This document shows, piece after piece, positions 1 through 36,691 of a stretch of 36,691 nt of DNA. The notes under the pieces are model-generated. The model did no database searches. It saw only the letters and a list, made by a program, of their open reading frames with translations, and was not told the DNA's origin. Source of the stretch: a virus; the IMG/VR virus record IMGVR_UViG_3300045988_165663, positions 1 through 36,691 of that record. One strand, 5' to 3'. The position numbers and the translations under genes were made by a program. How positions within the stretch are numbered: position 1 is the first letter of the stretch; each line of letters starts with the position of its first letter.

Positions 1-607
1 ACAGCACTTGAACTATTACCAGCCCTTTATAAGCATGATAGAAGCAAACACAGACGAGCCTTTAGCAGCGACCGCTTACAAATCATGGTGGGCTTTAGAT
101 GGTAACCCGCTTTTTGGAACCATCACAAGGCTATCAAATGCAGGGCTTACAGCACAAACGCCTAGCGGATATTTAGAGATAGGGGGGGCTACTCCAAATG
201 CAAAATATAACTTTAACGATTATCCGCGTGTAAAGAGAGCTATACAAGCCGGATATGCCAGCGAGTTTTTTACAAACAACAACGACGATACATTTAGCAT
301 TGTGGATTTAAGAGGGCGATTCTTTAGGATATGGAGTAACGGCGGGGATATTGATAGTGCTAGGACTTTTAACACATTGCAAGGCGATGCAATAAGGGAT
401 TTTAATATTACACAAGATGGCAATAATAGAGCCTTTAACTTTCCTAATGGAGGTAATTATTGGGTAGCACCAACCTCAAATGCATTTATCCTAGGTCAAA
501 TGTCAATTTACGGCAAACCTAGCAGAGCAGGGGTGCCAACAACAAGTGGTGCTAACGCAGAGAATAGACCTTATAACTTCAACATTCGAATGTTTATAAA
601 AGTTTGA
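1..607 (+). CDS. tail fibre / receptor-binding protein, C-terminal part (gene wraps the circular junction; N-terminal part is 36235..36572)
   Basis: ORF-track ORF 8..607 is the in-frame continuation of the ORF opening at ATG 36235 (36580-36235=345, divisible by 3). It is the last gene of the baseplate/tail operon. The sequence is Gly/Asn-rich and fibre-like. The combined product is about 314 aa. Confidence 0.55.
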   Translation, partial: QHLNYYQPFISMIEANTDEPLAATAYKSWWALDGNPLFGTITRLSNAGLTAQTPSGYLEIGGATPNAKYNFNDYPRVKRAIQAGYASEFFTNNNDDTFSIVDLRGRFFRIWSNGGDIDSARTFNTLQGDAIRDFNITQDGNNRAFNFPNGGNYWVAPTSNAFILGQMSIYGKPSRAGVPTTSGANAENRPYNFNIRMFIKV

Positions 608-619
608 TACAATTGCAAC

Positions 620-670
620 GGCTAAGGGTAGCTCCTTTATAAGAACCTCACACTCTCAAATCCCTTAGCC
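620..670 (+). terminator. stem-loop after the tail fibre gene (GGCTAAGGG ... CCCTTAGCC, perfect 9-bp inverted repeat, about 33-nt loop)
   Basis: Perfect inverted repeat at 620..628 and 662..670 read directly from the sequence, 13 nt after the stop at 605..607. No U-tract follows, so function as an intrinsic terminator is uncertain. Confidence 0.3.
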
Positions 671-713
671 ACTCCAAAGCATAGCAACACTTAAAAAATC
701 TATAAACCTTTTT

Positions 714-789
714 TAGTAATTAAGTATTAATTAAGTTAAACATATATATAATTACAGCACTTTAAAGAAAAACTTATAAAGGAGCTTAA
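714..789 (+). promoter_or_regulatory. reiterated promoter/RBS cassette copy 1 (TATAAT at 747..752; AAAGGAGCT RBS; ATG 790)
   Basis: Shares the motif ...TTAAGTATTA...TATAATTACAG...ATAAAGGAGCTnnnATG with the copies at 5224, 6766, 7482, 9000, 12068 and 13053. Confidence 0.5.
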
Positions 790-1170
790 ATGGCAGTTAA
801 AATAGAACGCTACCCAGATGGTAGCATCTTTAAAAAGATAGAATACACAAACAGCAAAAGAAACCGAGTTGAAACACACTACAACAGCAACGGAGGCATC
901 TTTATTATAAATACATTCAAAAATAACAAGATGCACGGAGTCCAAAAAGTGTTTCGTGATGGTGGTGGGATTATGATGGAAACCCCTTATGTGAATGATA
1001 TGCCACACGGAGTCTCTATACTTTATGATAAAGATGGAAGCATTAAAGGCACAATTACCTATGAAAAAGGCAAAGAGGTTAATATCCAAAAATTCAAAAA
1101 AAGAGGCCTAAGTAGCGTGGTATTACAGCAAAAATATTCACAAGCGGTTAAATTGGTAAATAAACAATGA
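790..1170 (+). CDS. MORN-repeat (YwqK-like) protein, paralogue 1
   Basis: Repeated (Y/F)xxNGx...(H/N)G(x)xxxYxxxGxxxxxxxYxxG units (HYNSNGGIF..., MHGVQKVFRDGG..., PHGVSILYDKDGSI). Strong RBS and promoter cassette upstream. Confidence 0.6.
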   Translation: MAVKIERYPDGSIFKKIEYTNSKRNRVETHYNSNGGIFIINTFKNNKMHGVQKVFRDGGGIMMETPYVNDMPHGVSILYDKDGSIKGTITYEKGKEVNIQKFKKRGLSSVVLQQKYSQAVKLVNKQ

Positions 1171-1292
1171 AAGAATTTTTCGAACAATCGCTAATGTATC
1201 TCTTTGCAGGTTTTACAATAGGTGGAGTTGTTGTAGTCAGTATTTTTGCTATTTGTGCGGTTGTAATACTATTAAGACAAGATAAGGATTAA
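1167..1292 (+). CDS. small membrane protein (41 aa), ATGA-overlapped with upstream gene
   Basis: Missing from the ORF track (below 60 aa). ATG 1167 overlaps stop 1168..1170 and the stop is TAA 1290..1292. Single hydrophobic helix. Shares the LxYLFAGxxxGxxxV motif with the next gene. Confidence 0.35.
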   Translation: MKEFFEQSLMYLFAGFTIGGVVVVSIFAICAVVILLRQDKD

Positions 1293-1301
1293 CAAGTAAT
1301 A

Positions 1302-1505
1302 ATGAAAGAAATCTTGGATATTATAGGAATAGAGCTTATATATCTCTTTGCAGGGATTATGGGAGTTTCATTGCTAGTTGGAATATGCCTAGCAGTCGGT
1401 GCATCTTATTATTATTTATTCGATTATTTTATAATGGCGACTCTCATGATTATGTTAGTTATTGTGGTTTTTATGATAGGCATAGCTATCCATAAATTAC
1501 TATAA
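1302..1505 (+). CDS. small membrane protein (67 aa, 2 TM), paralogue of 1167..1292
   Basis: Hydrophobic throughout. Shares the N-terminal motif IYLFAGIMGVSLLVG with the preceding mini-gene. Confidence 0.45.
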   Translation: MKEILDIIGIELIYLFAGIMGVSLLVGICLAVGASYYYLFDYFIMATLMIMLVIVVFMIGIAIHKLL

Positions 1506-1518
1506 ACAAGGATTAGCA

Positions 1519-2058
1519 ATGAAAATCTTTTTGGATAGATTTAAGATAAGCGATAAACAAGACAGCAAAGGCGAGCTTAGCACTATAGGCAATTTCTACA
1601 TACTTGATAACGATGGCAAAGAGATTTTTAGGTGCTACAGCGTAGAAAACAACGCGCCCTCAAGTGATGAGAGTGGTAGAGACCATAGGATAATGCCACG
1701 CGTTTATAGCTTGCAATGGAATTTCACAAAAACAAGCGTAGCAAAAGAGGGCTTTAGAAATGTGGATTTTGAGAGCGTTAAAGCTTTGGTAAAAGAATCC
1801 TATCACAACCGCTACCATGAATTTCATTCTAAGCATCTTGGAATCCAGCTAATAACCGATGAGGTAAAGGGCTTTAATGAAAGATGGATTTTTATACATA
1901 TTGCAAATAGTGGCAAGGATATTGACGGGTGCATCGGATTAGGTTATAGCTTAACCGAGATTGGAGTAGCACAATCTACACAAGCAACACAAGACTTTTA
2001 TAATATAGTGCATAAAGCCAACATAAGCGATTTTACCTTAGAGATTAAAGACTTCTAA
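1519..2058 (+). CDS. hypothetical protein with conserved His...GCIG motif (possible Cys/His hydrolase or L,D-transpeptidase-like fold)
   Basis: ORF of 179 aa with RBS AAGGA. Motif FIHIANSGKDIDGCIGLGYS resembles the H...GC catalytic signature of YkuD-like enzymes. The assignment is speculative. Confidence 0.45.
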   Translation: MKIFLDRFKISDKQDSKGELSTIGNFYILDNDGKEIFRCYSVENNAPSSDESGRDHRIMPRVYSLQWNFTKTSVAKEGFRNVDFESVKALVKESYHNRYHEFHSKHLGIQLITDEVKGFNERWIFIHIANSGKDIDGCIGLGYSLTEIGVAQSTQATQDFYNIVHKANISDFTLEIKDF

Positions 2059-2078
2059 ATAGCCTTGCTTTAATGCTT

Positions 2079-2107
2079 GCTTCTCTTTTGCTTCTCTTTT
2101 GCTTCTC
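2079..2107 (+). repeat. 11-bp tandem repeat GCTTCTCTTTT x about 2.7
   Basis: Read directly in the intergenic region after the stop at 2056..2058. Confidence 0.6.
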
Positions 2108-2190
2108 ATAATTCTATAATCAAATATTATTTTAAGCTTCTTTTAAAGTATAAATAATTATTATACAGGCAACAAAATAAAGGAGTTTAT

Positions 2191-2787
2191 ATGGAGTTAA
2201 TAGATACAAAAGTATTTGCATTAGATAAAGTAAAATTTGAAGTTAAAGTCAAGATGATTGACAATTATCCGTCTTTTCTAAGCCTTTGTGAGATAGCTAA
2301 AGCAGTGGATAATGATTTTAATGCAGACAATTACTTCAACCAAAAGGATTTTTTGGACTTCTTAAAGGACTTAGAAAAATTGGATTATCCAGCGTTTGAG
2401 TTTGAAAAGACGCCTTATAGCTTTAGAATATGGACTCATCCATTTGTATTTATAAAGACTTTGCACGATGCAGGGATAGAGACACAATACTTTTTAAAGA
2501 AACAATGGCTTATGAAAGCTATTTTGAACTTTAGATACCCATCGGCTAATAGCAACTATAAAGAGAATCTTTACGCTTTGGTAAATAGCCTTTTATCAAA
2601 TGCCAGTGAAATAGCATTGTTTGAGAGATTTAAGAAAGAAACCGAAACACATATAACATACAAGCAGGAAAGAATACACGACTTAACCTATGGCGCAATA
2701 CATACCTTTAAGAGCTTGGAGCTAGGATTAGAACTAGGCATTGAACTCTACAAAGAGAGCTTAAAAGGCAATATAGCATTATCCTGA
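2191..2787 (+). CDS. hypothetical protein (198 aa)
   Basis: Clean ORF with an AAAGGAG RBS and a variant promoter cassette upstream. No recognisable motif. Confidence 0.5.
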   Translation: MELIDTKVFALDKVKFEVKVKMIDNYPSFLSLCEIAKAVDNDFNADNYFNQKDFLDFLKDLEKLDYPAFEFEKTPYSFRIWTHPFVFIKTLHDAGIETQYFLKKQWLMKAILNFRYPSANSNYKENLYALVNSLLSNASEIALFERFKKETETHITYKQERIHDLTYGAIHTFKSLELGLELGIELYKESLKGNIALS

Positions 2788-2873
2788 TTTTGTAAAACAA
2801 GCTATTTTAAAAGAATTCGAACTATCCACTTTATGCGTGGGTAGCTTTGATAAAAGCATGTAAATTAAACTTA

Positions 2874-2882
2874 CCCCCCCCC
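2874..2882 (+). repeat. poly-C homopolymer (C9) in the promoter region upstream of the KilA-N gene
   Basis: ttaCCCCCCCCCttag read directly. Sits about 105 bp upstream of ATG 2988 in an extremely AT-rich intergenic region. Confidence 0.8.
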
Positions 2883-2987
2883 TTAGAAACATCAAAAAAA
2901 AGTAATTAAAAAAATTAAAATTTAAATAAACTTTTATAAAAGTTATTATAAAATTCTAATTTTAAACTTATATTTAAAGGGATAAGC

Positions 2988-3629
2988 ATGACTACTGAAG
3001 TTATAATGCAAAGAGAGCTATTGGGTGATTTTGTAAGCCAAAAAAGCAAAAGTGGATTTTTTAGTGCTACCGATTTATTTAGAGTTGGCAATAAATGGAG
3101 ATTAGCAAATGGGTTTGATTCTAAAACAATGCAAGATTATTTGCAGACAAAAAATGCAAAAGAGTTTATTGCAGAGCTAAAAACTAAAAACAACGGCGAA
3201 ACGCCTTTAATTAGCGGTAGGGGTAGGGGGCATCATAGCTGGGTGCATCCTCTTTTGTTTATAGATATGGCATTGTGGATTAATCCAAAGCTAAAGATTG
3301 AAGTATATGAGTGGCTTTTTGATAGCCTTTTACAATATAGAAACAACAGCGGGGATAGCTTTAAGAAAATGTGCGGGGCTTTACTTATAAGAGCAAACCA
3401 AACCGATTTTATAAAAAACATACAGAAGCTATGCAAACTCATACAAGTGGAGTGCGGGGTTAGTGATTGGAATAATGCAACACAAGAGCAACTAAGGTTA
3501 AGGGATAGAATCCACGAAAACATAGCCTTATTGGCAGATGTGCTAAACAATAACAAAGAAGCAATAAGGCTAGGAATCTACAAAGCAAAGAATAAAGACA
3601 ATAAAATAGACTATTCTCAAATGGTGTAG
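2988..3629 (+). CDS. KilA-N domain DNA-binding protein (anti-repressor/Bro-like)
   Basis: N-terminal FSATDLFRVGNKW...SWVHPLLFIDMALWINPKLKIEVYEW matches the KilA-N/APSES fold signature. Confidence 0.75.
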   Translation: MTTEVIMQRELLGDFVSQKSKSGFFSATDLFRVGNKWRLANGFDSKTMQDYLQTKNAKEFIAELKTKNNGETPLISGRGRGHHSWVHPLLFIDMALWINPKLKIEVYEWLFDSLLQYRNNSGDSFKKMCGALLIRANQTDFIKNIQKLCKLIQVECGVSDWNNATQEQLRLRDRIHENIALLADVLNNNKEAIRLGIYKAKNKDNKIDYSQMV

Positions 3630-3771
3630 CAAAATACTACGCAGGGGTAGAAAATGGGATGGCTATACATATTTAATATGTAGATGGTGCATGTTTAACA
3701 TGTATCCTTTGCAAGATTTAGTTTTCTTTAAGTAAATATTACATATAATTAAGCATTACTACATTCTAGTA

Positions 3772-3819
3772 AGCGGGTTCTACAAAGGCTTGCGAGTGCC
3801 TGCTACCAGCCCGCTTTTT
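3772..3819 (+). terminator. rho-independent terminator-like hairpin (AAGCGGG...CCCGCTT + TTTTT)
   Basis: GC-rich stem 3772..3778 / 3808..3814 followed by a T5 run, downstream of the KilA-N gene. The loop is long (about 30 nt) and contains an internal GGC/GCC stem. Confidence 0.45.
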
Positions 3820-3832
3820 AGAGTGTAGATTT

Positions 3833-4234
3833 ATGGTAGTGAAACTCGCAACTTCACTTACTACTACACTACTTCTTTTTACACGCGGAAAGATTTTTAC
3901 AATGTATAACTTAATTCAAAATACACTAGGAGATACTAGCTTTGTTATGCTAAACAAGGCAGTTATTAAGGAATTAGGATTGCACGAAGCAGTAGTGCTA
4001 GGCTTTTTTGCAGATAGATGGGCTTATTTTGAACACGCGGATTTTTACTACATGATACATCAAGTATCAAACGATACCGGCTTAAGTGAGAGAGAATGCA
4101 GAAACATTATCAGCAAGCTAGTAGATAAAGGCATTTTAGTTAAGACGGGGTTTAGAGGCGCGCCTCCTAAGCAATTTTACAATCTTAACAAAGATGCGCT
4201 TATTAAGTATGAGGGGGCTTGGCATGTTGAATAA
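3833..4234 (+). CDS. winged-helix protein paralogous to the N-terminal domain of the replication protein (alternative start ATG 3902)
   Basis: VIKELGLHEAVVLGFF...ISKLVDKGILVKTGF aligns with VAKRLGIVEAVLLHNI...LKQLVDDGWLIKDNF of the 4273 gene. Confidence 0.5.
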   Translation: MVVKLATSLTTTLLLFTRGKIFTMYNLIQNTLGDTSFVMLNKAVIKELGLHEAVVLGFFADRWAYFEHADFYYMIHQVSNDTGLSERECRNIISKLVDKGILVKTGFRGAPPKQFYNLNKDALIKYEGAWHVE

Positions 4235-4272
4235 AAAACTACAAAAAAATTTCACAATCAAGGAGTTTTAGC

Positions 4273-5226
4273 ATGAGCTATCACATGTTTAATACACAAG
4301 TAGCCAAAAGATTGGGGATAGTGGAAGCAGTTTTGCTACACAATATCCAGTTTTGGATAGATAAAAATAGAGTGAATGAGAAGCACTTTTACAAGGGCAG
4401 ATATTGGACTTATAACTCTGCAAAGGCATTTTCAGAATTATTCGAGTATTTATCAGACAGACAAATAAGCAGGGCATTGAAGCAATTGGTAGATGATGGG
4501 TGGCTTATTAAAGACAATTTTAATACTAACCCATTTGACAGAACTAATTGGTATGCCTTAACCGATAAATACTACAACGAATTTATGAGTCAGAATGGAG
4601 TAGAGAATAGTTGCGAACCGATACACAAAACAAAGGACGCCGATTTGCCAAAAATGGTAAATGGTAAAACAAAAAGTGGCAATTCTTATATAGATACAGA
4701 TATTAAACCAGATATTAAAAGAGCAGATATAAACACAAATATAAACACAGATTCTCACGCGAAAACACAAAAAGACATAGCAGATTCTTTGTTTGGTTTT
4801 TTTGGTTTTGAAAGTGAAAATTCAGTTTCTGCCTCTAAAGCAAAAGAGAAACAAGACGACTTAGAAAGCTTAGAGAATGAATTTAATCAGATTTGGGAGA
4901 TATATCCAAAAAAGCAAGATAAACAAGCAGCGCTTAATAGCTATATAAAAGCCAGAAAGGGGTCAAAAATCGCTTTAAATAGTAGAGGTAATACCAAAGT
5001 AGCCTCTCAATCATTTGAAACGATTTTAAAGGGCGTTAGAAACTATTTAAGAGCTAATAGAGGAGTCGAGATTAAGTTTATTAAGCACTTAAGCACATTT
5101 CTTAATCAGCAGGCATATTTGGATTTTCAAGGTGAGGTTAATTTAAATCGGCGCGTTGGAGTTGTAGATAACCACGAGGACTATATAAACGCGGATAAGA
5201 GCATATATATCCCCAAACCTAAATAA
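4273..5226 (+). CDS. replication initiation / replisome-organiser protein (N-terminal wHTH, DnaD-like)
   Basis: wHTH N-domain, position immediately upstream of the DnaC-like loader, and internal iteron-like repeats at 4680..4760. Confidence 0.55.
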   Translation: MSYHMFNTQVAKRLGIVEAVLLHNIQFWIDKNRVNEKHFYKGRYWTYNSAKAFSELFEYLSDRQISRALKQLVDDGWLIKDNFNTNPFDRTNWYALTDKYYNEFMSQNGVENSCEPIHKTKDADLPKMVNGKTKSGNSYIDTDIKPDIKRADINTNINTDSHAKTQKDIADSLFGFFGFESENSVSASKAKEKQDDLESLENEFNQIWEIYPKKQDKQAALNSYIKARKGSKIALNSRGNTKVASQSFETILKGVRNYLRANRGVEIKFIKHLSTFLNQQAYLDFQGEVNLNRRVGVVDNHEDYINADKSIYIPKPK

Positions 5227-5288
5227 TAATTAAGTAAAGATTAAGAATAAATAATTATAATACACACAAAAACAAAAGGGGCTTATAA
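5224..5288 (+). promoter_or_regulatory. promoter/RBS cassette copy (TATAAT 5256..5261)
   Basis: TAATTAAGTAAAGATTAAGAATAAATAATTATAAT... shared with the other copies. Confidence 0.45.
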
Positions 5289-5555
5289 ATGGCATTTCAT
5301 AGAGATGGATTTACCGGTATCAAAAAGATTTATCGCGACAATGGCAGGTTATATTGTGAGGTAGAGTGTAAAGATGGAAAATTTAACGGCATCTACAAGG
5401 TTTATTATGAGAACAGAAAGCTAAGCCGTTTTTATTTGTATAAAGATGGCTTAAGGCATGGGACTTGTAGGGATTATGATGCCAAAGAGAGGCTAATTAG
5501 AGAGAGAGTATATCAAGATGGAGTCTTAATAAGTCAAAGGGATATTGTATGGTAA
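5289..5555 (+). CDS. MORN-repeat (YwqK-like) protein, paralogue 2
   Basis: IYRDNGRLYCEVECKDGKFNGIYKVYYENRKL...YKDGLRHGTCRDYD repeats. Confidence 0.6.
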   Translation: MAFHRDGFTGIKKIYRDNGRLYCEVECKDGKFNGIYKVYYENRKLSRFYLYKDGLRHGTCRDYDAKERLIRERVYQDGVLISQRDIVW

Positions 5556-6247: not shown

Positions 6248-6765
6248 TGGAATCTGGACAATTCTTTTTATCCGCGCTAGAAATAGAATCGCTGGTCTCT
6301 TATTTTTATAGATTGTTTGATAACAATAAAGACACGCAAGACTATATTTACACTTGCGAAAAGCCCGCTACAAAACAAGATGTAACGATAAGATTTAAAG
6401 ATGGCATCTTAAGCGTGTGGCTTAATGAGAATGGTAACCCCGCCTCTTTATTGTCAGAGTTTGATACAAAAGAGCTTATTTTAACAATACATGCCGGCGG
6501 GATAACCGATACATTAAGACAATCTATTTTCTCTCAATCTATAAGAGGGTGTATCGAACAAGCAATACTAAAGAAATATGGCTACAAGGTTTATTTTGCA
6601 AGGAATCAAGTCAAAAGACGCGATGTTGTATATTGCCAGTGTAGCATCTTGAACGATAAAGGTGGCTTTGTTATAAAGAAATTCAGAATCTATCCAACAT
6701 CCCCGCTTTACTTTAGGTTTGACTTAAAGAAACTCACTATAGAAAATTTACACGAAAACATATAA
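6247..6765 (+). CDS. hypothetical protein (172 aa)
   Basis: ATGA overlap with the DnaC-like gene (translationally coupled). No motif recognised. Confidence 0.5.
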   Translation: MESGQFFLSALEIESLVSYFYRLFDNNKDTQDYIYTCEKPATKQDVTIRFKDGILSVWLNENGNPASLLSEFDTKELILTIHAGGITDTLRQSIFSQSIRGCIEQAILKKYGYKVYFARNQVKRRDVVYCQCSILNDKGGFVIKKFRIYPTSPLYFRFDLKKLTIENLHENI

Positions 6766-6828
6766 TTAAATATTATTTAAGAATAAATAGTTATAATTAC
6801 ATCGCAATTAAATATAAAGGAGCTAAAA
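6766..6828 (+). promoter_or_regulatory. promoter/RBS cassette, near-consensus copy (TTAAGAATAAATAGTTATAATTACA; TATAAT 6792..6797)
   Basis: Almost identical over about 40 bp to the copy at 12068..12130. Confidence 0.55.
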
Positions 6829-7143
6829 ATGGAAATTTTAGAAAAAATTGCAGAAAAGGTAAATGGGAAGGTTTGGATTAAGCATGGCAAGCAAAGAATT
6901 TATTTTAAAACTGATAAATCCGCTAGCGCTTACCTTGATTATGAAGTCATGCCAAAAAGTGATAATGGTGCAGAAGCTTTAAACAATTCAAGTTTAAAGG
7001 TTTTTAGCGATTGTCAATCACAAAGCGTCGCTTGGAATGTAAATCGTGCCAAACAGATTAAATTTGAAATTATTAGAAAATTAAATGCGTTGCTTGGTTT
7101 GAATTTGGATTTGCCTAAAAAATGGCAAGAAGTTATTTTGTAA
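6829..7143 (+). CDS. hypothetical protein (104 aa)
   Basis: ORF with consensus cassette and RBS upstream. Confidence 0.5.
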   Translation: MEILEKIAEKVNGKVWIKHGKQRIYFKTDKSASAYLDYEVMPKSDNGAEALNNSSLKVFSDCQSQSVAWNVNRAKQIKFEIIRKLNALLGLNLDLPKKWQEVIL

Positions 7144-7156
7144 GAGGGGTTGAATC

Positions 7157-7483
7157 ATGAGAAAGCTTAACCTAAAGCAACAAGTTATAAACGAATATTA
7201 TGCCAGCGGTCAGATTATGAACATATGCGAATATGTGAATAATAAAAAAAATGGCTGGGATATTTGGTTTCATGAAAACGGCAATAAATGGATAGAAGCA
7301 GAATATAAAGACGATATACAACACGGCTTAGAGAGATACTACGACAACCAAGGGATTATAATATATGAGAGGCCATATAAAAACGATGAGATAGATGGGA
7401 CAGAGCGGTGGTTTGATGAGTTTGGAAATGTAATAAAAGAATATGAGTATAGAGATTCTGTCCGGCAATTAAGCAAAGGTTAA
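7157..7483 (+). CDS. MORN-repeat (YwqK-like) protein, paralogue 3
   Basis: WFHENGNKWIEAEYKDDIQHGLERYYDNQGIIIYERPYKNDEIDGTERWFDEFGNV is a textbook MORN variant repeat. Confidence 0.65.
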   Translation: MRKLNLKQQVINEYYASGQIMNICEYVNNKKNGWDIWFHENGNKWIEAEYKDDIQHGLERYYDNQGIIIYERPYKNDEIDGTERWFDEFGNVIKEYEYRDSVRQLSKG

Positions 7484-7530
7484 GTAATAATTATTTATAA
7501 TGTTAATCTAATTTATATAAAGGAGCTTAT
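7482..7530 (+). promoter_or_regulatory. promoter/RBS cassette copy (TATAAT 7496..7501)
   Basis: TAAGTAATAATTATTTATAAT...ATAAAGGAGCTTATATG. Confidence 0.45.
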
Positions 7531-8319
7531 ATGGAAAAACTTAGTTTAACACAAGAGGATTACAGGGCTTATCCAGCATTAAGCACTAGCGATATTAAGC
7601 AAGTGCTAGATAATCCTTACAAGTTTAGAATCGGCTTTAAGACAGAGGAAACTCCAGCAATGAAGCTAGGTAGCTTGGTGCATACCCTTGTATTAGAGCC
7701 TTCAGAGTTTAATAAAACCTATGCAATAGCGCCCATCGCGGATAAACGCACAAAAGAGGGCAAATCAATATGGGCGGAGTTTTCAGAAGCAAATCAAGAC
7801 AAAATCATTATAGATTCTGCCATGTATGAAACCGCTAAAGGAATGCTACATAGCTTAAAAACAAGCGGGGTTTTTGAGAGATACTTTACACAAGGCGAGG
7901 CAGAGTCTAGCTACATAGGCGAGGCTTTAGGTGCAAAAATAAAGGTGCGTCCGGATTTCTTTAATCTTGAAAAAAACCTTATAGTGGATTTGAAATGCGT
8001 TAGTAATGCCAGTGCAAAGGGATTTCAAAGACTATGCGCTAACCTTAGATATTACATACAAGCCTATTTGTATATGAAAATCACGGGTGCTAAGCAGTTT
8101 ATCTTTGTGGCTATTGAAACCAAAGAACCTTACACAATAGGCATTTATGAGTTGGATTACATAGCCTTAGAATTAGCAGAAGCAGAGGTTAAAAAAGCCT
8201 TGCAGATAATAAGCGATATGGACGAGCTAGACAATATTATAAACGTGTATGGCTACCAGAGCATAGAGCCGGTTATGTTGGCACTCCCAAACTATGTTTT
8301 TTATGATAGCGAGGCATAA
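7531..8319 (+). CDS. PD-(D/E)XK family exonuclease (phage recombination exonuclease, YqaJ/Cas4-like fold)
   Basis: RPDFF...LIVDLKCV (D...D-x-K) motif plus a QAYLY segment. Located upstream of the annealase and SSB genes. Confidence 0.65.
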   Translation: MEKLSLTQEDYRAYPALSTSDIKQVLDNPYKFRIGFKTEETPAMKLGSLVHTLVLEPSEFNKTYAIAPIADKRTKEGKSIWAEFSEANQDKIIIDSAMYETAKGMLHSLKTSGVFERYFTQGEAESSYIGEALGAKIKVRPDFFNLEKNLIVDLKCVSNASAKGFQRLCANLRYYIQAYLYMKITGAKQFIFVAIETKEPYTIGIYELDYIALELAEAEVKKALQIISDMDELDNIINVYGYQSIEPVMLALPNYVFYDSEA

Positions 8320-8320
8320 C

Positions 8321-8881
8321 ATGGGAGGCGTGAAAAAGGTTAAGGGCTTTTGGGTAGATAAGAATAACAATTGCTGGGATTCTTTAATCTACACAAAAGA
8401 GGAAGCCTTAGAGTATTCTAAGAGCTTAGAAAATTGTAGAGATTGCGTTAATTGTATCAAGTGTAAAAATTGCATATCTTGTATAAATTGTGATAATTGT
8501 ATCAATTGCAAAGAGTGCAAAGACTGCACACATTGTGATATTTGTGAAAATTGCATCTTTTGTAAAGGTTGCAGAGAGTGTCAGGATTGCTATTCTTGCA
8601 AAAATTGTAAGGTTTGCAAATCTTGTAAGTATTGCGATGATTGCAGGGCTTGTATTGATTGTGAGGATTGTAAAGAGTGTGAAAAATGCTCAGCAAGTTA
8701 TCGTTGTGCATCTTGTAAATCTTGTATAGGTTGCTTTGATTGTAATTTTTGCGATGATTGTAGTCGTTGTAAAGATTGCGGATATTGTGTATATTGCAGT
8801 GGTTGTAAAACTTGTAGAAATTGTAAGTGGTGCAAGGATTATAAAGAGCGTTTTAATATCCACTTAAGAGCAGAATCATAA
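8321..8881 (+). CDS. cysteine-triplet repeat protein: about 44 consecutive X-X-Cys units after a 45-aa unique N-terminus
   Basis: Preferred start is ATG 8321, just after the upstream stop at 8317..8319. The translation reads NCRDCVNCIKCKNCISCINCDNCINCKECKDC... with Cys at every third residue over about 135 aa. The DNA shows a 9-nt periodic TGY signal across 8432..8836. Confidence 0.6.
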   Translation: MGGVKKVKGFWVDKNNNCWDSLIYTKEEALEYSKSLENCRDCVNCIKCKNCISCINCDNCINCKECKDCTHCDICENCIFCKGCRECQDCYSCKNCKVCKSCKYCDDCRACIDCEDCKECEKCSASYRCASCKSCIGCFDCNFCDDCSRCKDCGYCVYCSGCKTCRNCKWCKDYKERFNIHLRAES

Positions 8882-8999
8882 TTAGTTTGGTGCAGATTTA
8901 AGGCATCTGCAGGAAGCGTAAAGCTAGCCATCTCTTTATACCATCGGTATTCGAGCATTGGCATTATATCAAAATTTTTCTTGATTTCAACACAAATCG

Positions 9000-9062
9000 C
9001 AATTAAGTATTTTTTAAGAAATAATTACTTATAATTACACACATATAAATAAAGGAGCTTAT
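9000..9062 (+). promoter_or_regulatory. promoter/RBS cassette copy (TATAAT 9030..9035)
   Basis: AATTAAGTATTTTTTAAGAAATAATTACTTATAATTACAC...ATAAAGGAGCTTATATG. Confidence 0.45.
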
Positions 9063-9692
9063 ATGGAAAAAACAATCTACAAAAAGTTAATGGAAATACA
9101 GTCGAGTTTAAAGGCTAACAAAAGCCGTTTTAATAAGTTTGGGGGCTTTTCATACAGAAGCGCAGAGGATATTTTGGAAGCAGTGAAGCCCTTGCTAAAA
9201 CAAAATGGCTTAGTGCTTGTTTGTAGTGATAGTATAGACAATGGAATCCTAACCGCTACTTATAGCTTAATTGATGTGGATACCGGCGAATCGGTTACTA
9301 ATAGCGCAGTGGCTATTGTAGGCGAGCATAAAGGTATGAGTGCAGAGCAGAACACGGGGTGCGCTAGTAGCTATGCAAGGAAATACGCACTTAATGGCTT
9401 GTTTGCTATCGATGATAGCAGTGCAGACCCGGATTCTATGCCAGCAGAAAAAGAAGCTAAGCCTATGCCAGCAGAAAAATCTAAAGCAAAGAGCGAGCTA
9501 TTGGAAGCTAAAAAGCTACTAATGAAAGCCTTTAATGATGCCGGTGTAAAAAACAATAACGATATTAAGGAAATCTTGGAGTCAATCAAACTAGATACAA
9601 ACAATCCGGAAACAATAAAGGAATTTTTAAGTTTAAACCATAGAGAGATTATCCGAGAAAACATGAGAAAAATTGCAGAGAAGGTATTTTAA
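9063..9692 (+). CDS. single-strand annealing protein, Erf-like
   Basis: N-terminal KLMEIQSSL...FSYRSAEDILEAVKPLLKQNGL and central GCASSYARKYALNGLFAIDD resemble Erf-family SSAPs. Sits in an exonuclease-SSAP-SSB gene order. Confidence 0.55.
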   Translation: MEKTIYKKLMEIQSSLKANKSRFNKFGGFSYRSAEDILEAVKPLLKQNGLVLVCSDSIDNGILTATYSLIDVDTGESVTNSAVAIVGEHKGMSAEQNTGCASSYARKYALNGLFAIDDSSADPDSMPAEKEAKPMPAEKSKAKSELLEAKKLLMKAFNDAGVKNNNDIKEILESIKLDTNNPETIKEFLSLNHREIIRENMRKIAEKVF

Positions 9693-9694
9693 GT

Positions 9695-9701
9695 GGGGGG
9701 G
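9695..9701 (+). repeat. poly-G (G7) forming the RBS of ssb
   Basis: TAAgtGGGGGGGtgctaaATG read directly. Confidence 0.7.
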
Positions 9702-10177: not shown

Positions 10178-10438
10178 TTGATGGAATTTAAGTTTAAAGC
10201 ACACAAACAATATAGTAGAAAAGATGTAGCTAAAGCCTTTAATAAGACTATTTACAATATAGACACACAATCCAGAAAATATAAAGCAAACGGGGGCAGA
10301 AAAGGGCTTTTAAATAGTAACCAGCAAGTGCCTTTCGTGGTATTTGCAAGCAGAATAATAAGAAACACGCCAGAGGAGTTTTGGGGCTTTTTCTTAGATG
10401 ATAACAACTTTACAAACTTTGATATTGTTAAGGATTAA
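10178..10438 (+). CDS. hypothetical protein (86 aa)
   Basis: ORF with RBS AAAGGAG. Confidence 0.45.
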   Translation: MMEFKFKAHKQYSRKDVAKAFNKTIYNIDTQSRKYKANGGRKGLLNSNQQVPFVVFASRIIRNTPEEFWGFFLDDNNFTNFDIVKD

Positions 10439-10442
10439 TGGC

Positions 10443-10682
10443 TTGAAATATATTCTTTTGCTTATGTGCGTGGTTGTGCTTGGTGGGTGCTTTAGTACTA
10501 AAGAGAGGGTAGTGTATATCCCCCAAAGATGCGATATAATCTACCCAGCTTATCCATTGCCTAGAGGCAATGCAGTAGAAAACCTTAAAGAGCTTGCTAT
10601 TTACACAGAGAAGCTAGAATGCTCCTTAGATTTTTGCATAAACGGCGAGAATCTTATACCAAATTGCAAGATTGAGAGGTAA
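10443..10682 (+). CDS. lipoprotein (TTG start; signal MKYILLLMCVVVLGGC, lipobox LGG-C)
   Basis: In-frame TTG 10443 lies 8 nt after AAGGA. Classic lipoprotein signal peptide with four further Cys. Candidate o-spanin or superinfection-exclusion lipoprotein. Confidence 0.45.
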   Translation: MKYILLLMCVVVLGGCFSTKERVVYIPQRCDIIYPAYPLPRGNAVENLKELAIYTEKLECSLDFCINGENLIPNCKIER

Positions 10683-10864: not shown

Positions 10865-10873
10865 GGGGGGGGG
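10865..10873 (+). repeat. poly-G (G9) forming the RBS of the 10880 membrane-protein gene
   Basis: aggaGGGGGGGGGtgtgtaTTG read directly. The TTG start lies 6 nt downstream. Confidence 0.8.
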
Positions 10874-11382: not shown

Positions 11383-11677
11383 ATGCCTAATTCTTGGAAT
11401 CGGCTTTGCATTTATCTCATTGGCAACGGGTCTCTTTTACTATAAAAACAAATATGAAAACGCATTGGTTAAGCTAGGCAGTGTGGAAAATAGCCTAGAT
11501 ATACAAAACAAGGCTATAAAGCAAAAGGAGTTGGCATTAGAGGCTTATAAAAATAATCTTAAGGATATAGAGACAAACATTAAGAGCAGGTATAAAAGCG
11601 TTAATGTTTCACATGAAAACTGCGAGAGCGAGCTTAAGGAAATAAATAGGATTTTAGAGGTTTTTTATAATAGATAA
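11366..11677 (+). CDS. N-terminal TM + periplasmic coiled-coil protein (i-spanin-like candidate)
   Basis: LILGIGFAFISLATGLFYY followed by a heptad-rich region KAIKQKELALEAYKNNLKDIETNIK. This is the Rz-like architecture. Confidence 0.4.
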   Translation: MLSINKCLILGIGFAFISLATGLFYYKNKYENALVKLGSVENSLDIQNKAIKQKELALEAYKNNLKDIETNIKSRYKSVNVSHENCESELKEINRILEVFYNR

Positions 11678-11688
11678 GGGGGCTTATC

Positions 11689-12072
11689 TTGAGAGGTTTT
11701 AATAAGTTTAGAAACATAAAGATAAATAATGCCACTTTTGGCAAATTCGATTCTACATTGGAATACAACACTTTTTTGTATCTCCTAGCACTACAACAAC
11801 ACGGGAAAATATCAGAGTTAAAAAGACAAGTAGCAATCGATTTAACTCCGCTAAAGCAAAAGCATAAGGTTAAGTATGTATGCGATTTTCTCTATAAAGA
11901 CAAGGAACGCGGGTTAATTATTGCAGACGCTAAAGGTATGTTAAGGCCAGAGTATAGAGTTAAGAGAGAGTGGTTGTTATACCAGTTTAAGGGATTTGTT
12001 TTTATTGAATTCTACAAAGAGAAAATAAAAGAGTATCTGCCATCAGGGAGTATTGATATTTTTAGTAATTAA
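11689..12072 (+). CDS. DUF1064-like phage protein (predicted restriction-endonuclease-like fold)
   Basis: FDSTLEYNTFLYLLALQQHGKISELKRQVAIDLTP...VKYVCDFLYKDKERGLIIADAKG matches the pattern recalled for DUF1064 phage proteins. TTG start with GGGGG RBS. Confidence 0.5.
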   Translation: MRGFNKFRNIKINNATFGKFDSTLEYNTFLYLLALQQHGKISELKRQVAIDLTPLKQKHKVKYVCDFLYKDKERGLIIADAKGMLRPEYRVKREWLLYQFKGFVFIEFYKEKIKEYLPSGSIDIFSN

Positions 12073-12130
12073 GTATTATTTAAGAATAAATAGTTATAAT
12101 TACAGCGTAAATTTAAATAAAGGAGCTAGA
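12068..12130 (+). promoter_or_regulatory. promoter/RBS cassette, near-consensus copy (TATAAT 12095..12100)
   Basis: TAATTAAGTATTATTTAAGAATAAATAGTTATAATTACAGCG...ATAAAGGAGCTAGAATG. Confidence 0.55.
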
Positions 12131-12874
12131 ATGAAAAGAGAGATAGAATATATCTATGGGGATAAAGACAATAATATACTAAGACAACGCGTTTCTAAGT
12201 TAGGCAATATAAGACACGGGCTTACGATATGTTATTACAATGCGAGAACCCCTTGCAATATAAGACACGGGCTTACGATATGTTATTACAATGTGAGAAC
12301 CCCTTATCGCAAGATTCTTTATAAGTTTGGCAAGAGGGTTGCAGAATTATTCTTGTTTGAGAATAGCAAAGGCGATATTGTAAAGTCTAAGACAAACTCT
12401 TTTTCTGAATTAGTCAAAGAGGGCAGAAAAACCATATTAAAGGAATGGCAAGCAACAAAAAGAGGGGTGTTTTTAAAATCTGAAGCAGAAATAAAGAATG
12501 GTGTTTTGCATGGCAAAAAAGTCGTTTATGATTCTGATGGCTGGGTTAGTCAAATTATGCAATATAGAGATGGTAAGCTTGAGGGCGCGTCTTATTCTTA
12601 CAACAAAGATGCTGATATTGTAACCGAGATAAATTATAAAAATGATGTTAGACACGGCGAGGCTTTTCTTGTTGGAAGCTCCATGTTTGGCGAGGGCGCG
12701 CTTACAAAAGGTGTGCGAGTTTTAAGCGATAAATCCACTAGTAATAAAGAGTTTGTAGCACTATATGAAAATGGCAATGTAATCGAGTTATATTTCTCTA
12801 GGTTTGGCATAAAAATAGCAAAGGTGCATGAGAATATGATTAGTGAAATCATATTGCACGGGGATTTACCATAA
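12131..12874 (+). CDS. MORN-repeat-containing protein, paralogue 4, with an in-frame 51-bp tandem duplication near the N-terminus
   Basis: Start chosen at ATG 12131 (RBS AAGGAG) rather than the track's 12053. C-terminal KNGVLHGKKVVYDSDGWVSQIMQYRDGKLEGASYSYNKDADIVTEINYKNDVRHGEAF MORN units. Duplication NIRHGLTICYYNARTPC / NIRHGLTICYYNVRTPY. Confidence 0.6.
   Translation: MKREIEYIYGDKDNNILRQRVSKLGNIRHGLTICYYNARTPCNIRHGLTICYYNVRTPYRKILYKFGKRVAELFLFENSKGDIVKSKTNSFSELVKEGRKTILKEWQATKRGVFLKSEAEIKNGVLHGKKVVYDSDGWVSQIMQYRDGKLEGASYSYNKDADIVTEINYKNDVRHGEAFLVGSSMFGEGALTKGVRVLSDKSTSNKEFVALYENGNVIELYFSRFGIKIAKVHENMISEIILHGDLP
12206..12307 (+). repeat. 51-bp direct tandem duplication (2 copies, 2 mismatches) inside the CDS
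   Basis: AATATAAGACACGGGCTTACGATATGTTATTACAATG(C/T)GAGAACCCCTT(GC/AT) at 12206..12256 and 12257..12307. Confidence 0.85.
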
Positions 12875-12882
12875 GGGGGGGG
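12875..12882 (+). repeat. poly-G (G8) between the stop at 12872..12874 and ATG 12885
   Basis: ccaTAAGGGGGGGGttATG read directly. Confidence 0.8.
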
Positions 12883-12884
12883 TT

Positions 12885-13058
12885 ATGACATTGTATGTTA
12901 CCTATAAAGACGGCAGGCATTCTTATATTGAAACGAAAAATATGGTAGATATTAAAGATTCTAAAGGGGATAAATACGTTGTCTTGAGTGAAAAAGAGTA
13001 TAAAAAGTTGCTTGCAGAGATTGAGTATTTAAAGAAAAATCCAGTTTTATTTAATTAA
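12885..13058 (+). CDS. small hypothetical protein (57 aa)
   Basis: ATG 12885 lies right after the G8 tract. The ORF-track version (12843..) is extended upstream only through the G tract. Confidence 0.4.
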   Translation: MTLYVTYKDGRHSYIETKNMVDIKDSKGDKYVVLSEKEYKKLLAEIEYLKKNPVLFN

Positions 13059-13113
13059 GTAAAGATTAAGTAATAAATAAATATAATTATACAAATTAAA
13101 TAAAGGAGCTAGA
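13053..13113 (+). promoter_or_regulatory. promoter/RBS cassette copy (TATAAT 13082..13087)
   Basis: TAATTAAGTAAAGATTAAGTAATAAATAAATATAATTATACA...ATAAAGGAGCTAGAGTG. Confidence 0.45.
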
Positions 13114-13410
13114 GTGCAAGAGGTTAAGGAAGCATTAAAGAATATCTTTATGGGTATAGCGCTAGGCATTGTGATGGCAGGATTCGTGTTATCCATTATT
13201 GAAGGACGGCTATTGCTGGCATCGAGAGAGAATTACGGCTTAATATCTTTTTATATATTTGTGCTAATTACTACATTGTCAATTTTTGTTTATCTCTTTA
13301 AAGATGGGATAAACAACACTACTTTAGCAATAGGCATTCTAAGCGCAATTGGGTTTGTAATAAGCGAGATTCTTATATCCCTTGACTTAGTGCTAGCTTT
13401 TTCATTTTAA
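13114..13410 (+). CDS. membrane protein, 3 TM (holin / superinfection-exclusion candidate)
   Basis: GTG start. Hydrophobic helices GIALGIVMAGFVLSII, LISFYIFVLITTLSIFVYLF and LAIGILSAIGFVISEILI. Confidence 0.5.
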   Translation: MQEVKEALKNIFMGIALGIVMAGFVLSIIEGRLLLASRENYGLISFYIFVLITTLSIFVYLFKDGINNTTLAIGILSAIGFVISEILISLDLVLAFSF

Positions 13411-13418
13411 GGGGTGCA

Positions 13419-13619
13419 GTGATGGCAATGTTTGTATGGTTTTTAGTGCTAACAAGTGCCAGCATTTATGCGCTTTTTGGAGTTGCTATCGAAGCAGGGA
13501 AAGAATCTTGCTTTAAGGTTAAGTGGTATTGGTGGCTAATTGTAGGAGGGCTATGTATGCTCTTTTTATGCTTGGATATTTATTTGCTATATAAGACTTT
13601 TAATGCTTTAAGGGCCTAA
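13419..13619 (+). CDS. membrane protein, 2 TM
   Basis: FVWFLVLTSASIYALFGVAI and WWLIVGGLCMLFLCLDIYLL. Confidence 0.45.
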   Translation: MMAMFVWFLVLTSASIYALFGVAIEAGKESCFKVKWYWWLIVGGLCMLFLCLDIYLLYKTFNALRA

Positions 13620-13622
13620 AGA

Positions 13623-14909
13623 ATGAGTGTAGGAAAGCAATTAAGCTTATTTGACTTTATCGAAAACCCTTTTGGTGTGATAGATACTAATCAAACCACT
13701 AACACAGATTCTATTAAAAACCTTAATGCTTGCATCCCTTACAAAGGAAGCAAGAGAAAGATTAGCCACTTGATACTACAAGAGCTAAGAAACCATGCTC
13801 CACAAGCGAAATATTTTTATGATATGTTTGGCGGTGGTGGTGCAATGGCTTTAAACGCGCATTTTAACGGATACAAGACTCACTACAATGAGCTAGATAT
13901 AGACGTGTATGTGTATATGAAGTTTCTAATATCCCGGCTACAAAATAAAAAAGGTAAATATGGGATTTTGCCTGATGAGTGGTATAGGTTTATTACAAAG
14001 GCAGAATTTGACAAGATTAAGGCAGACAAAACGCCGAGCGCATATAGAAGCTTTGTTTTGCTTAATTACAGCTTTGCTAATGATTGGAATACCTACTTTT
14101 GCAATAAAGAAAAAGAGCTATTCAAACAAAAAGGGCATTATCTATTGCTAGACAACGACAAAGAGTGCGCAGAGTGGTGGGATAATCACTTTAAAGAGAA
14201 TGGAAGCGTAGCAGGCATATATAATCATTTGCATAGTGAGATATATCCTAGCCTTAACTGGAGAGAGCGGAGAGCTTATTTTGTGAATATAACCCTTAAG
14301 ATAGAAGCAATAAGAGTTGCAGGGATAGCGTATTTATTTCAAAAGAAAAGCAACGCGGATACATACAAGGCAGTTAAGGATATATCACAAAAAGACTTAT
14401 GCAGGCTTATAGATAAACATAATCCGGATTTACCTAAGAAAAACTACAAAGGAACACAAGGCAAAGGATTAACCGAGCTTAAGCAATTACAGCGATTAGA
14501 GCAATTACAGCAATTACAGCAATTACAGCAATTACAGCAATTACAGCAATTAGAGCGATTACAGCAATTAGAGCGATTAGAGCTAATCACACACACGAAT
14601 CTGGATTATGCAGAAGTAAAAATAAGCACTCCTCCACAAGACACAATCATATATGCAGACCCGCCTTATTCAAATACTAGCGAGTATAAATTGTGTGGAA
14701 ATAGCTTTGATTATGAGCGATTCTACCAGTGGTGTATAGACAAGGCAAAGCAAGGGTATTATGTTTTTATAAGCGAATATAATATGCCACAAGATAGGTT
14801 TAAAGAGGTATGGAGTAAGGATACTTTAGCAAATTTTAACACTATCAAAAAAGATTGTGGTGCAAGAGTAAGACCACAAAGAGTCGAGCGTCTTTTTATG
14901 GTGCGTTAG
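13623..14909 (+). CDS. DNA N6-adenine methyltransferase, Dam/D12 class (orphan), with an internal (QLQ)n repeat linker
   Basis: N-terminal motif IPYKGSKRK and a C-terminal DPPY motif (IIYADPPYSNTSEY). Between them lies LKQLQRLEQLQQLQQLQQLQQLQQLERLQQLERLEL, encoded by 9-bp tandem repeats. Confidence 0.85.
   Translation: MSVGKQLSLFDFIENPFGVIDTNQTTNTDSIKNLNACIPYKGSKRKISHLILQELRNHAPQAKYFYDMFGGGGAMALNAHFNGYKTHYNELDIDVYVYMKFLISRLQNKKGKYGILPDEWYRFITKAEFDKIKADKTPSAYRSFVLLNYSFANDWNTYFCNKEKELFKQKGHYLLLDNDKECAEWWDNHFKENGSVAGIYNHLHSEIYPSLNWRERRAYFVNITLKIEAIRVAGIAYLFQKKSNADTYKAVKDISQKDLCRLIDKHNPDLPKKNYKGTQGKGLTELKQLQRLEQLQQLQQLQQLQQLQQLERLQQLERLELITHTNLDYAEVKISTPPQDTIIYADPPYSNTSEYKLCGNSFDYERFYQWCIDKAKQGYYVFISEYNMPQDRFKEVWSKDTLANFNTIKKDCGARVRPQRVERLFMVR
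14483..14584 (+). repeat. 9-bp tandem repeat (CAATTACAG / CGATTAGAG), about 11 units, in frame within the methyltransferase gene
   Basis: Read directly: cagcaattacagcaattacagcaattacag... Confidence 0.85.
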
Positions 14910-36234: not shown

Positions 36235-36691
36235 ATGCCTATAACTAACGCGCCTTTTTTTAAATACGCTTTTGCACAAAACGGGGATAAGACTCCTATA
36301 CCACAAGACCAAGACCCAAAAGGTAAAGTAAGCTATGAAGTAGGCTTTGGTGGTATTTACAGCAGAGACCCGTTAGCGGACGGGGATTATGTATTAAGAC
36401 CGGATTTTAACCAGCTAATGTTTGATACAACCAACGCTATAAGGCAAATGCAAATAAACGGCGCTAACCTTTGGAGAGCAGAGGTAGCAAATAATGGTGG
36501 CTATCCAGCCGGCGCGGTTGTTTTAGTAAAAATGCAAATGAACGGGGTTATCGATAGTGGTAGCGATTTTGTACAGCACTTGAACTATTACCAGCCCTTT
36601 ATAAGCATGATAGAAGCAAACACAGACGAGCCTTTAGCAGCGACCGCTTACAAATCATGGTGGGCTTTAGATGGTAACCCGCTTTTTGGAA
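36235..36691 (+). CDS. tail fibre / receptor-binding protein, N-terminal part (continues through the circular junction into 1..607)
   Basis: ATG 36235 with RBS AAAGGA. MPITNAPFFKYAFAQNGDKTPIPQ... The last 119 bp are identical to 1..119 and the frame is continuous with ORF 8..607. Confidence 0.55.
   Translation, partial: MPITNAPFFKYAFAQNGDKTPIPQDQDPKGKVSYEVGFGGIYSRDPLADGDYVLRPDFNQLMFDTTNAIRQMQINGANLWRAEVANNGGYPAGAVVLVKMQMNGVIDSGSDFVQHLNYYQPFISMIEANTDEPLAATAYKSWWALDGNPLFG
36573..36691 (+). repeat. 119-bp terminal direct repeat identical to 1..119 (circular-genome overlap)
   Basis: acagcacttgaactattaccagccctttataagcatgatagaagc... is present at both ends. Confidence 0.95.

Follow-up and report, generated by a model that had tools for sequence, protein, structure and literature searches.

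The two genes and their junction

At positions 12860-12900 of the window (the whole stretch of phage DNA analyzed here, 36,691 nt), two genes meet at a junction that reads ...GGGGATTTACCATAA-GGGGGGGG-TT-ATGACATTG. The upstream ORF runs from ATG 12131 to 12874, encodes 247 amino acids and is closed by a TAA at 12872-12874; eight G residues (12875-12882, hereafter G8) and TT follow, and the downstream ORF, of 57 amino acids, extends from ATG 12885 to 13058. This layout had been described in a first-pass annotation of the DNA, and all of it is confirmed in the sequence. The two ORFs are in different frames and lie 10 nt apart. The features of the region are as follows.

12058..12130, + strand: cassette copy before the MORN-like gene (TTAAG..N..TATAAT..AAATAAAGGAGCTAGA), putative start of a two-gene unit
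12131..12874, + strand: MORN-repeat-like gene, 247 aa, first in the unit (Pfam MORN_2, E=3.5e-4, below the curated cut-off)
12872..12874, + strand: TAA stop of the MORN-like gene, 5' of the G tract; overlaps the AAGGGG Shine-Dalgarno (SD) core
12873..12882, + strand: SD region AAGGGGGGGG of the 57-aa gene, as judged from the junction census, anti-SD duplex energies and folding
12885..13058, + strand: conserved 57-aa gene, second in the unit (codon statistics; start fixed by an in-frame TAA)
13047..13113, + strand: next cassette copy, putative end of the two-gene unit and start of the next (GTG 13114)

The ends of the window are identical over 119 nt (1-119 and 36573-36691), and sister contigs of 36.5-37.9 kb are available from independent samples, several of them pig-gut metagenomes by their record names. 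The window is therefore a complete phage genome of ~36.6 kb, either circularly closed or terminally redundant (about 36.57 kb). All long ORFs are on the + strand, and recognized genes include those encoding KilA-N, ERF, SSB, a LydA-type holin, an Rz-like spanin, a DUF1064 resolvase-like protein, a D12 adenine methyltransferase and the small and large terminases. The large terminase (TerL) is 65% identical to that of a contig binned with an uncultured Helicobacter metagenome-assembled genome (MAG), and 38-39% identical to those of Campylobacter phages PC22, PC11 and DA10 and of a prophage of Helicobacter sp. MIT 05-5294; TerL relatives in IMG/VR, at 30-38% identity, are uninformative. Because of these closest large terminases, and judged by TerL similarity alone, the host is probably a Helicobacter or Campylobacter relative. 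A genome-collection search with TerL returned one Helicobacter MAG locus, which has no 57-aa homologue among the ORFs listed upstream of the terminase. Megablast and blastn searches of 11600-14000 against GenBank phages gave no match, and scanning IMG/VR and the JGI metagenome contigs for the exact junction pattern gave 0 matches. The relatives that carry the locus come from ENA/Logan assemblies only and were found through exact-protein look-ups.

A ~70-nt element precedes several genes of the window, and eight copies can be aligned as repeats.

712-792, + strand: copy before start 790
2125-2193, + strand: copy before start 2191
5218-5300, + strand: copy before start ~5290
6755-6831, + strand: copy before start 6829
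7461-7533, + strand: copy before start 7531
8995-9065, + strand: copy before start 9063
12058-12133, + strand: copy before start 12131
13047-13116, + strand: copy before start 13114

The consensus is AATTAAGTA..TTAAG.AATAAATA.TTATAATTACA...AAATAAAGGAGCT..ATG, with TATAAT (TTATAAT) between AATAAATA and AAATAAAGGAGCT. Going by these motifs, the elements may be promoter-plus-SD cassettes that appear to delimit the transcription units of the early region, and they are likely to be recombination points at which gene cassettes are exchanged. A promoter/terminator consensus scan gave nothing above shuffled sequences. With copies at 12058-12130 and 13047-13113, the MORN-like and 57-aa genes would thus form a two-gene unit, presumably co-transcribed, with G8 at its internal junction. 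The first genes of such units use the cassette SD, AAAGGAGCT.

The label "MORN-like", also taken from the first pass, is acceptable: the sub-threshold MORN_2 match is accompanied by two homologues with PF07661 and by the JGI product name "antitoxin component YwqK". Homologues are 161-252 aa in length, and an exact look-up of the 247-aa protein returned no record. The gene contains a 51-nt tandem duplication at 12204-12305 (98% identical) that lengthens the product by 17 aa (NIRHGLTICYYNxRTPx); it is missing from close homologues, which are 230 aa, and the JGI call of the window's gene is only 193 aa.

The gene upstream of the 57-aa gene varies in related phages, where it is the MORN-like gene, a 75-aa gene, both (as in locus L024) or neither. 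In loci without the MORN-like gene, its final ~22 nt, CACGGGGATTTACCATAA, survive and form the leader of the 57-aa gene; this remnant lies between the 75-aa and 57-aa genes in L002-L007 and L012-L019 (for example, L002 2959-3000) and is the footprint of cassette loss or replacement.

The 57-aa ORF is a real gene under purifying selection in its own frame. Among 13 distinct alleles of 171 nt, 24 of the 33 variable sites are at third codon positions, and variable codons in the gene's own frame comprise 22 with synonymous changes only versus 7 with an amino-acid change, compared with 2/26 and 1/26 in the other two frames. In 14 loci with a G4 run, a TAA lies in frame with the ATG, 9 nt upstream; the start is therefore fixed at ATG 12885, with no upstream start. 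The first pass had also described an ORF extended backwards through the tract in the frame of the upstream gene. This ORF exists (GTG 12843..13058, 71 aa), although its frame is that of the downstream gene. GTG 12843 was rejected as the true start, as it has no SD before it and the in-frame TAA occurs in those 14 relatives. Apart from this incidental GTG-started extension, no reading frame passes through G8.

The 57-aa protein is modeled by AlphaFold, with moderate confidence (pLDDT 74), as four beta-strands followed by a C-terminal helix. Foldseek of this model against the PDB found no match with E <=0.001, Pfam and PHROGs searches found nothing significant, and six small relatives were all that a profile search of 1.84 billion representatives gave. 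A likeness to Phd/YefM (Pfam PhdYeFM, PF02604) is sub-threshold (E=0.012, 15.8 bits versus a cut-off of 29.8 bits); given this score and the Foldseek result, assignment of the product as a Phd/YefM antitoxin was rejected.

The junction in related loci

Exact-protein look-ups provided 34 loci, including the window, in which the sequence between the stop and the ATG can be compared. The forms observed are given below, each followed by the ATG.

G4-CAG-TT (after TAA): 6 loci
G4-TGG-TT (after TAA): 6 loci
G5-CAG-TT (after TAA): 6 loci
G5-TTG-TT (after TAA): 4 loci
TTA-G5-CAG-TG (no TAA; as shown): 3 loci
G4-CGG-TT (after TAA): 2 loci
G8-TT (after TAA): 2 loci, the window and L011
G5-CTG-TT (after TAA): 1 locus
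G9-CT (after TAA): 1 locus, L021
Divergent leader AAAAAGGGGACGGTT: 1 locus
Divergent leader TAAAGGGATTGTT: 1 locus
Divergent leader AAGGAGCTAAAGCGGTT: 1 locus

An A-A-G-G-G(-G) core with its last G at -6 is present in 33 of the 34 loci. The exception, L022, is the one divergent leader of the three that has a canonical AAGGAG. In the window, the G residues from -10 to -6 correspond to this conserved SD run, which leaves a spacing of 5 nt to the ATG, while those from -5 to -3 stand where relatives have a CAG, TGG, CGG, TTG or CTG spacer. The G at -3 is also constant across the junctions; the window has G at -5 and -4 as well, joining all of them into G8. The run is interrupted or absent in 31 of the 34 loci. 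Because an uninterrupted G8 is found only in the window and L011, and G9 once, comparison of these loci shows G8 to be a rare, derived and recent allele of an ordinary G-rich ribosome-binding site. The natural distances from TAA to ATG are 9, 10 and 11 nt, exactly the span that -1 and +1 changes in G8 would produce. Where the run is uninterrupted, its length differs between genomes, with G8 in the window and L011 and G9 in L021 (91% identity).

The ENA contig L011 was assembled independently and shares 99.68% identity with the window across 4,686 nt. The two differ at 15 sites, all of which are at 10438-10514 and 14553-14562, and none falls in the G8 tract or in a G9 tract upstream of the holin gene. 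Because L011 was assembled independently and carries the identical G8, the tract is not an assembly artefact of one data set. The first of these two regions (~77 nt, within ORF 10398-10682) holds 13 of the 15 differences, including a 4-nt indel, and is a local hypervariable spot.

It had been suggested in the first pass that a +1 or -1 change in tract length could fuse or uncouple the two reading frames. The TAA of the MORN-like gene lies 5' of the tract, which is never translated in the upstream frame; tract length therefore cannot alter the end of that gene or join the frames. No MORN-like/57-aa fusion (~300 aa) was found among the relatives of either protein. Homologues of the 57-aa protein, whose cluster has more than 60 member sequences, are 56-61 aa with few exceptions, and entries of 68, 71 and 100 aa are gene-caller extensions through an accidentally open upstream frame. 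The 100-aa entry (P0058, on a 700-nt contig) joins to the 57-aa protein a stretch that by eye resembles the MORN-like N-terminus. Judging by the peptide, a deletion appears to have removed the stop along with most of the upstream gene, and the internal ATG with an AAGGGGG site is kept. A 133-aa entry (P0066) is a recombinant with a different, unrelated, membrane-like N-terminus, and a 375-aa member of the same cluster (P0056), considered as a fusion, proved to be an unrelated protein.

G-run ribosome-binding sites and sister tracts

G runs are common before the genes of this phage. At 16 of 50 gene starts, a run of at least four G residues occurs within 20 nt upstream (G4 at five starts, G5 at seven, and G6, G7, G8 and G9 at one each). 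TAAGGGG occurs at five sites on the + strand (11675, 12872, 13408, 22971 and 27887), and all five are the stop of a gene with the next start within 14 nt. At the ERF-SSB and MORN-like/57-aa junctions and at the five TAAGGGG sites, the G run comes after an upstream stop codon. The first pass took the tract for the ribosome-binding site of the 57-aa gene, and this view is supported by the conserved AAGGGG core, with its last G at -6, in most related loci.

AAGGGGG pairs with UUCCUCC of the 16S tail through one G-U wobble. Computed with a generic 16S tail and unconstrained duplex folding, which is not a validated initiation model, the predicted duplex of the tract SD is -10.5 to -13.4 kcal/mol versus -6.3 to -7.9 for the cassette SD. 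On the same terms, the predicted anti-SD duplex is -11.8 kcal/mol for G6, -13.4 for G7 and for G8, -12.8 for G9 and -12.5 for G10, a spread of <=1.6 kcal/mol, and local mRNA folding is constant at -6.6. No competing structure was found in folding around the tract (z=+0.8). A G run offers several registers to CCUCC, and a suitably spaced GGGGG would therefore be kept at any length; with these registers and with natural spacers of 9-11 nt, the predicted effect of a +1 or -1 change is therefore small. A change in the strength of the ribosome-binding site with tract length, as had been proposed, is possible, and these models predict it to be weak. Slippage of the tract is plausible in this host group, with a small expected effect. 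A G-quadruplex at the junction was also considered and was rejected, as only two G runs are nearby.

The window is 20.9% G (36.4% GC), and its long runs are G7, G7, G8, G9 and C9. Three G/C runs of at least 8 nt are present versus 0.17-0.20 expected under order-1 and order-2 Markov models, and none of 200 simulations reached three; because of this excess, G8 is more than chance.

Two sister tracts occupy similar positions. At the ERF-SSB junction, G7 (9695-9701) lies between the ERF stop (TAA 9690-9692) and the SSB start (ATG 9708), and in relatives this tract is missing (L022 and L023) or is G4 (L012-L014 and L017), G9 (L015), G12 (L005) or G15 (L002). Before the holin start (TTG 10880), G9 occurs at 10865-10873 as AGGA-G9-TGTGTA-TTG, and this tract is G9 in 11 loci and G10 in two (L002 and L025). 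Called holin ORFs are 98, 107 or 151 aa, or none is called, depending on the contig. The first pass had named G8 a second candidate phase-variable switch, and the G9 before the holin gene is probably its other candidate. Compared with G8, both the SSB and the holin tracts differ much more from genome to genome and are better targets; no other tract of the family varies in length nearly as much as the one at ERF-SSB, which is a better candidate for phase variation than G8. PolyG junctions also recur in more distant phages. In the Helicobacter MAG contig (L001 6214-6231), which belongs to the distantly related prophage with the 65%-identical TerL, TAA-G7-TGGAT-ATG lies between two ORFs, and L027, whose MORN-like gene is 56% identical, has G9-TGATA-ATG. 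This recurrence could reflect selection for mutable tracts and not tolerance of them.

Several other repeats are present in the window. A C9 tract on the + strand (2874-2882) lies 106 nt before the KilA-N ATG at 2988, within an AT-rich intergenic region of 200 nt and just after a hairpin at ~2817-2848; in the centroid fold its bases are unpaired. Neither significant structure (z=-0.99) nor a terminator-like hairpin was found in this region, and a search of the window against Rfam at gathering thresholds matched no family. The C9 tract could have a promoter effect and could in principle pair with the G tracts. A G7 run at 182-188 is in the coding frame of ORF 8-607 (199 aa, no Pfam match), where slippage could truncate the product. 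In the D12 adenine methyltransferase gene (13623-14909), 9-nt tandem repeats at 14455-14601 encode (QLQ/QLE)n, possibly an in-frame variable linker; products in relatives are 419-433 aa, and the window differs from its 99.7%-identical sister by two substitutions within the repeats. ORF 8294-8881 (195 aa) contains 13 copies of a 9-nt periodic repeat with TGT/TGC at 8434-8829, which suggests repeated Cys motifs in an unusual cysteine-rich repeat protein.

Interpretation and comparison with known systems

The most probable reading, at roughly 0.7, is that G8 is the SD of the conserved 57-aa gene within a two-gene unit, and that it tolerates changes in length, its slippage being a by-product and not a dedicated on/off switch, and yields no fusion. 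In such a model, a promoter/SD cassette at about 12058-12130 would drive the unit. The phage routinely sets a G-run SD (AAGGGG...) straight onto the TAA stop of the preceding gene, and a ribosome would then start the next gene ~10 nt downstream, either by fresh initiation or by coupling to termination. In this lineage, the spacer (CAG, TGG, CGG, TTG or CTG in relatives) would have been converted to G residues by substitution, joining a G5 run and the conserved G at -3 into G8. A single C-to-G change could convert G5-CGG-TT into G8-TT, and this exact intermediate is absent from the observed loci. Any five consecutive G residues could pair with CCUCC of the 16S tail via one G-U wobble; a G-run SD would therefore tolerate changes in its own length, and such tracts could arise and drift while expression hardly changes. 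Should the host be related to Campylobacter or Helicobacter, the tract probably slips at an appreciable rate, and under this neutral account an uninterrupted G-run SD would drift toward about G9-G10 while SD function tolerates the change. We infer both the mechanism of translation and the rate of slippage. In C. jejuni, a G8 tract lengthens to G9 at a rate of 6.9e-4 per division and shortens to G7 at 0.4e-4. Insertions outnumber deletions in G8-G9 tracts, the reverse holds for G11, and tracts have a modal length of G9, which the authors ascribe to molecular drivers, not selection (PMC3401435). With such rates, population heterogeneity is therefore likely at the G8 site.

It may instead be that the tract is a translational rheostat, selected for hypermutability, in which slippage alters SD strength and spacing to give graded, heritable and reversible levels of the 57-aa protein as a form of bet-hedging. 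This is considered unlikely. The G8 and G9 alleles at the site, the wider length variation of the two sister junctions, the similar TAA-polyG-ATG junction in the distant Helicobacter MAG prophage and the enrichment of long G/C runs would all fit a rheostat, as would the high slippage rates of G8 in C. jejuni (PMC3401435), the intergenic G-repeat rheostats known in H. pylori (PMC8295292) and the contingency loci now reported in phages (PMC12633550). However, with the run interrupted or absent in 31 of 34 loci, mutability is not conserved at the site; G6 to G10 differ little in predicted pairing and have identical mRNA folding; the stop-to-start distances that slippage would create are all natural; and the window and its 99.68%-identical sister show no tract difference. 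A broader proposal, that the phage family uses polyG at the ribosome-binding sites of operon-internal junctions (ERF-SSB, pre-holin and MORN-like/57-aa) as mutable translational dials of which G8 is a young member, is speculative and distinctly unlikely. If such dials are real, a RepG-like C/U-rich RNA or the C9 element of the phage itself might read them, and the dosage of proteins for recombination, lysis and accessory functions would vary heritably among progeny.

A target for a small RNA is very unlikely: here a C/U-rich loop of a host or phage sRNA would bind the G tracts, with tract length setting the outcome. In a related host genus, RepG acts in this way on a 5' leader with repeats of 7-12 G (PMC8295292); three ribosome-binding sites of this phage contain tracts of G7-G9, and its intergenic C9 is on the same strand and unpaired in the centroid fold; however, no partner RNA was found in the window, where Rfam gave no match and the C9 region shows neither significant structure nor a terminator-like hairpin, and most relatives have an interrupted G tract. 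Some platforms are prone to homopolymer errors, but a sequencing or assembly error in tract length is highly improbable, since a JGI contig and an ENA contig (k119_173407 of ERZ27229646) were assembled separately and have the identical G8. A frame switch, by which gain or loss of one G would join or separate the MORN-like and 57-aa frames, can be set aside almost entirely. The ORFs are indeed 10 nt apart in different frames, and P0058 joins a MORN-like-looking N-terminus to the 57-aa protein; however, the TAA is 5' of the tract and is not removable by its length, P0058 is apparently a deletion product in which the internal start site survives, and neither protein has a ~300-aa homologue among its relatives.

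If G8 is a length-tolerant SD, a false lead is avoided, as a homopolymer beside a start codon in a low-GC phage resembles a phase-variation switch. G-run SDs can grow into long polyG in high-slippage hosts, up to the G15 before SSB in one relative, and a tolerance account would explain intergenic polyG tracts without selection for switching. The polyG junction tracts of the family, above all the one before SSB, merit more attention than G8 and offer a better test of rheostats.

Campylobacter phages carry hypermutable polyG tracts, and such tracts reportedly lie in their receptor-binding genes. The polyG/polyC contingency loci of C. jejuni and H. pylori resemble the present site in tract length, in a host of probably the same phylum and in having sister tracts that differ between genomes, and G8 is of a length at which tracts in C. 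jejuni have mutation rates of ~1e-4 to 1e-3 per division (Bayliss et al. 2012, PMC3401435). However, classical contingency loci are inside reading frames and are turned on or off by frameshift, whereas G8 is intercistronic, follows a stop and shifts no frame; it is neither in a reading frame nor between promoter hexamers, the positions that define a simple-sequence-repeat contingency locus. The contingency loci described in phages (PMC12633550) are likewise simple-sequence repeats able to diversify progeny, but they act through reversible frameshifts in coding sequences, and G8 is non-coding.

RepG-tlpB of H. pylori also has a variable G-repeat in a leader or intercistronic mRNA, with gradual consequences expected (PMC8295292). 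The tlpB repeat, though, is upstream of the ribosome-binding site and acts via a defined sRNA, whose C/U-rich loop brings about repression at 7-12 G and activation at 14 or more (PMC8295292); G8 is itself the ribosome-binding site. The SD at a stop/start junction of a polycistronic phage operon has the same G-rich complement to CCUCC of the 16S rRNA, with a core that ends 5 nt before the ATG, and likewise overlaps the upstream stop, a TAAGGGG design found at five junctions of this genome. G8 differs from it in being a pure G run that stops only 2 nt short of the ATG and has a G-U wobble where the central A-U pair would be, and coupling is a proposal here. The G8 site is thus an ordinary feature of a known kind with a slippery-looking sequence.
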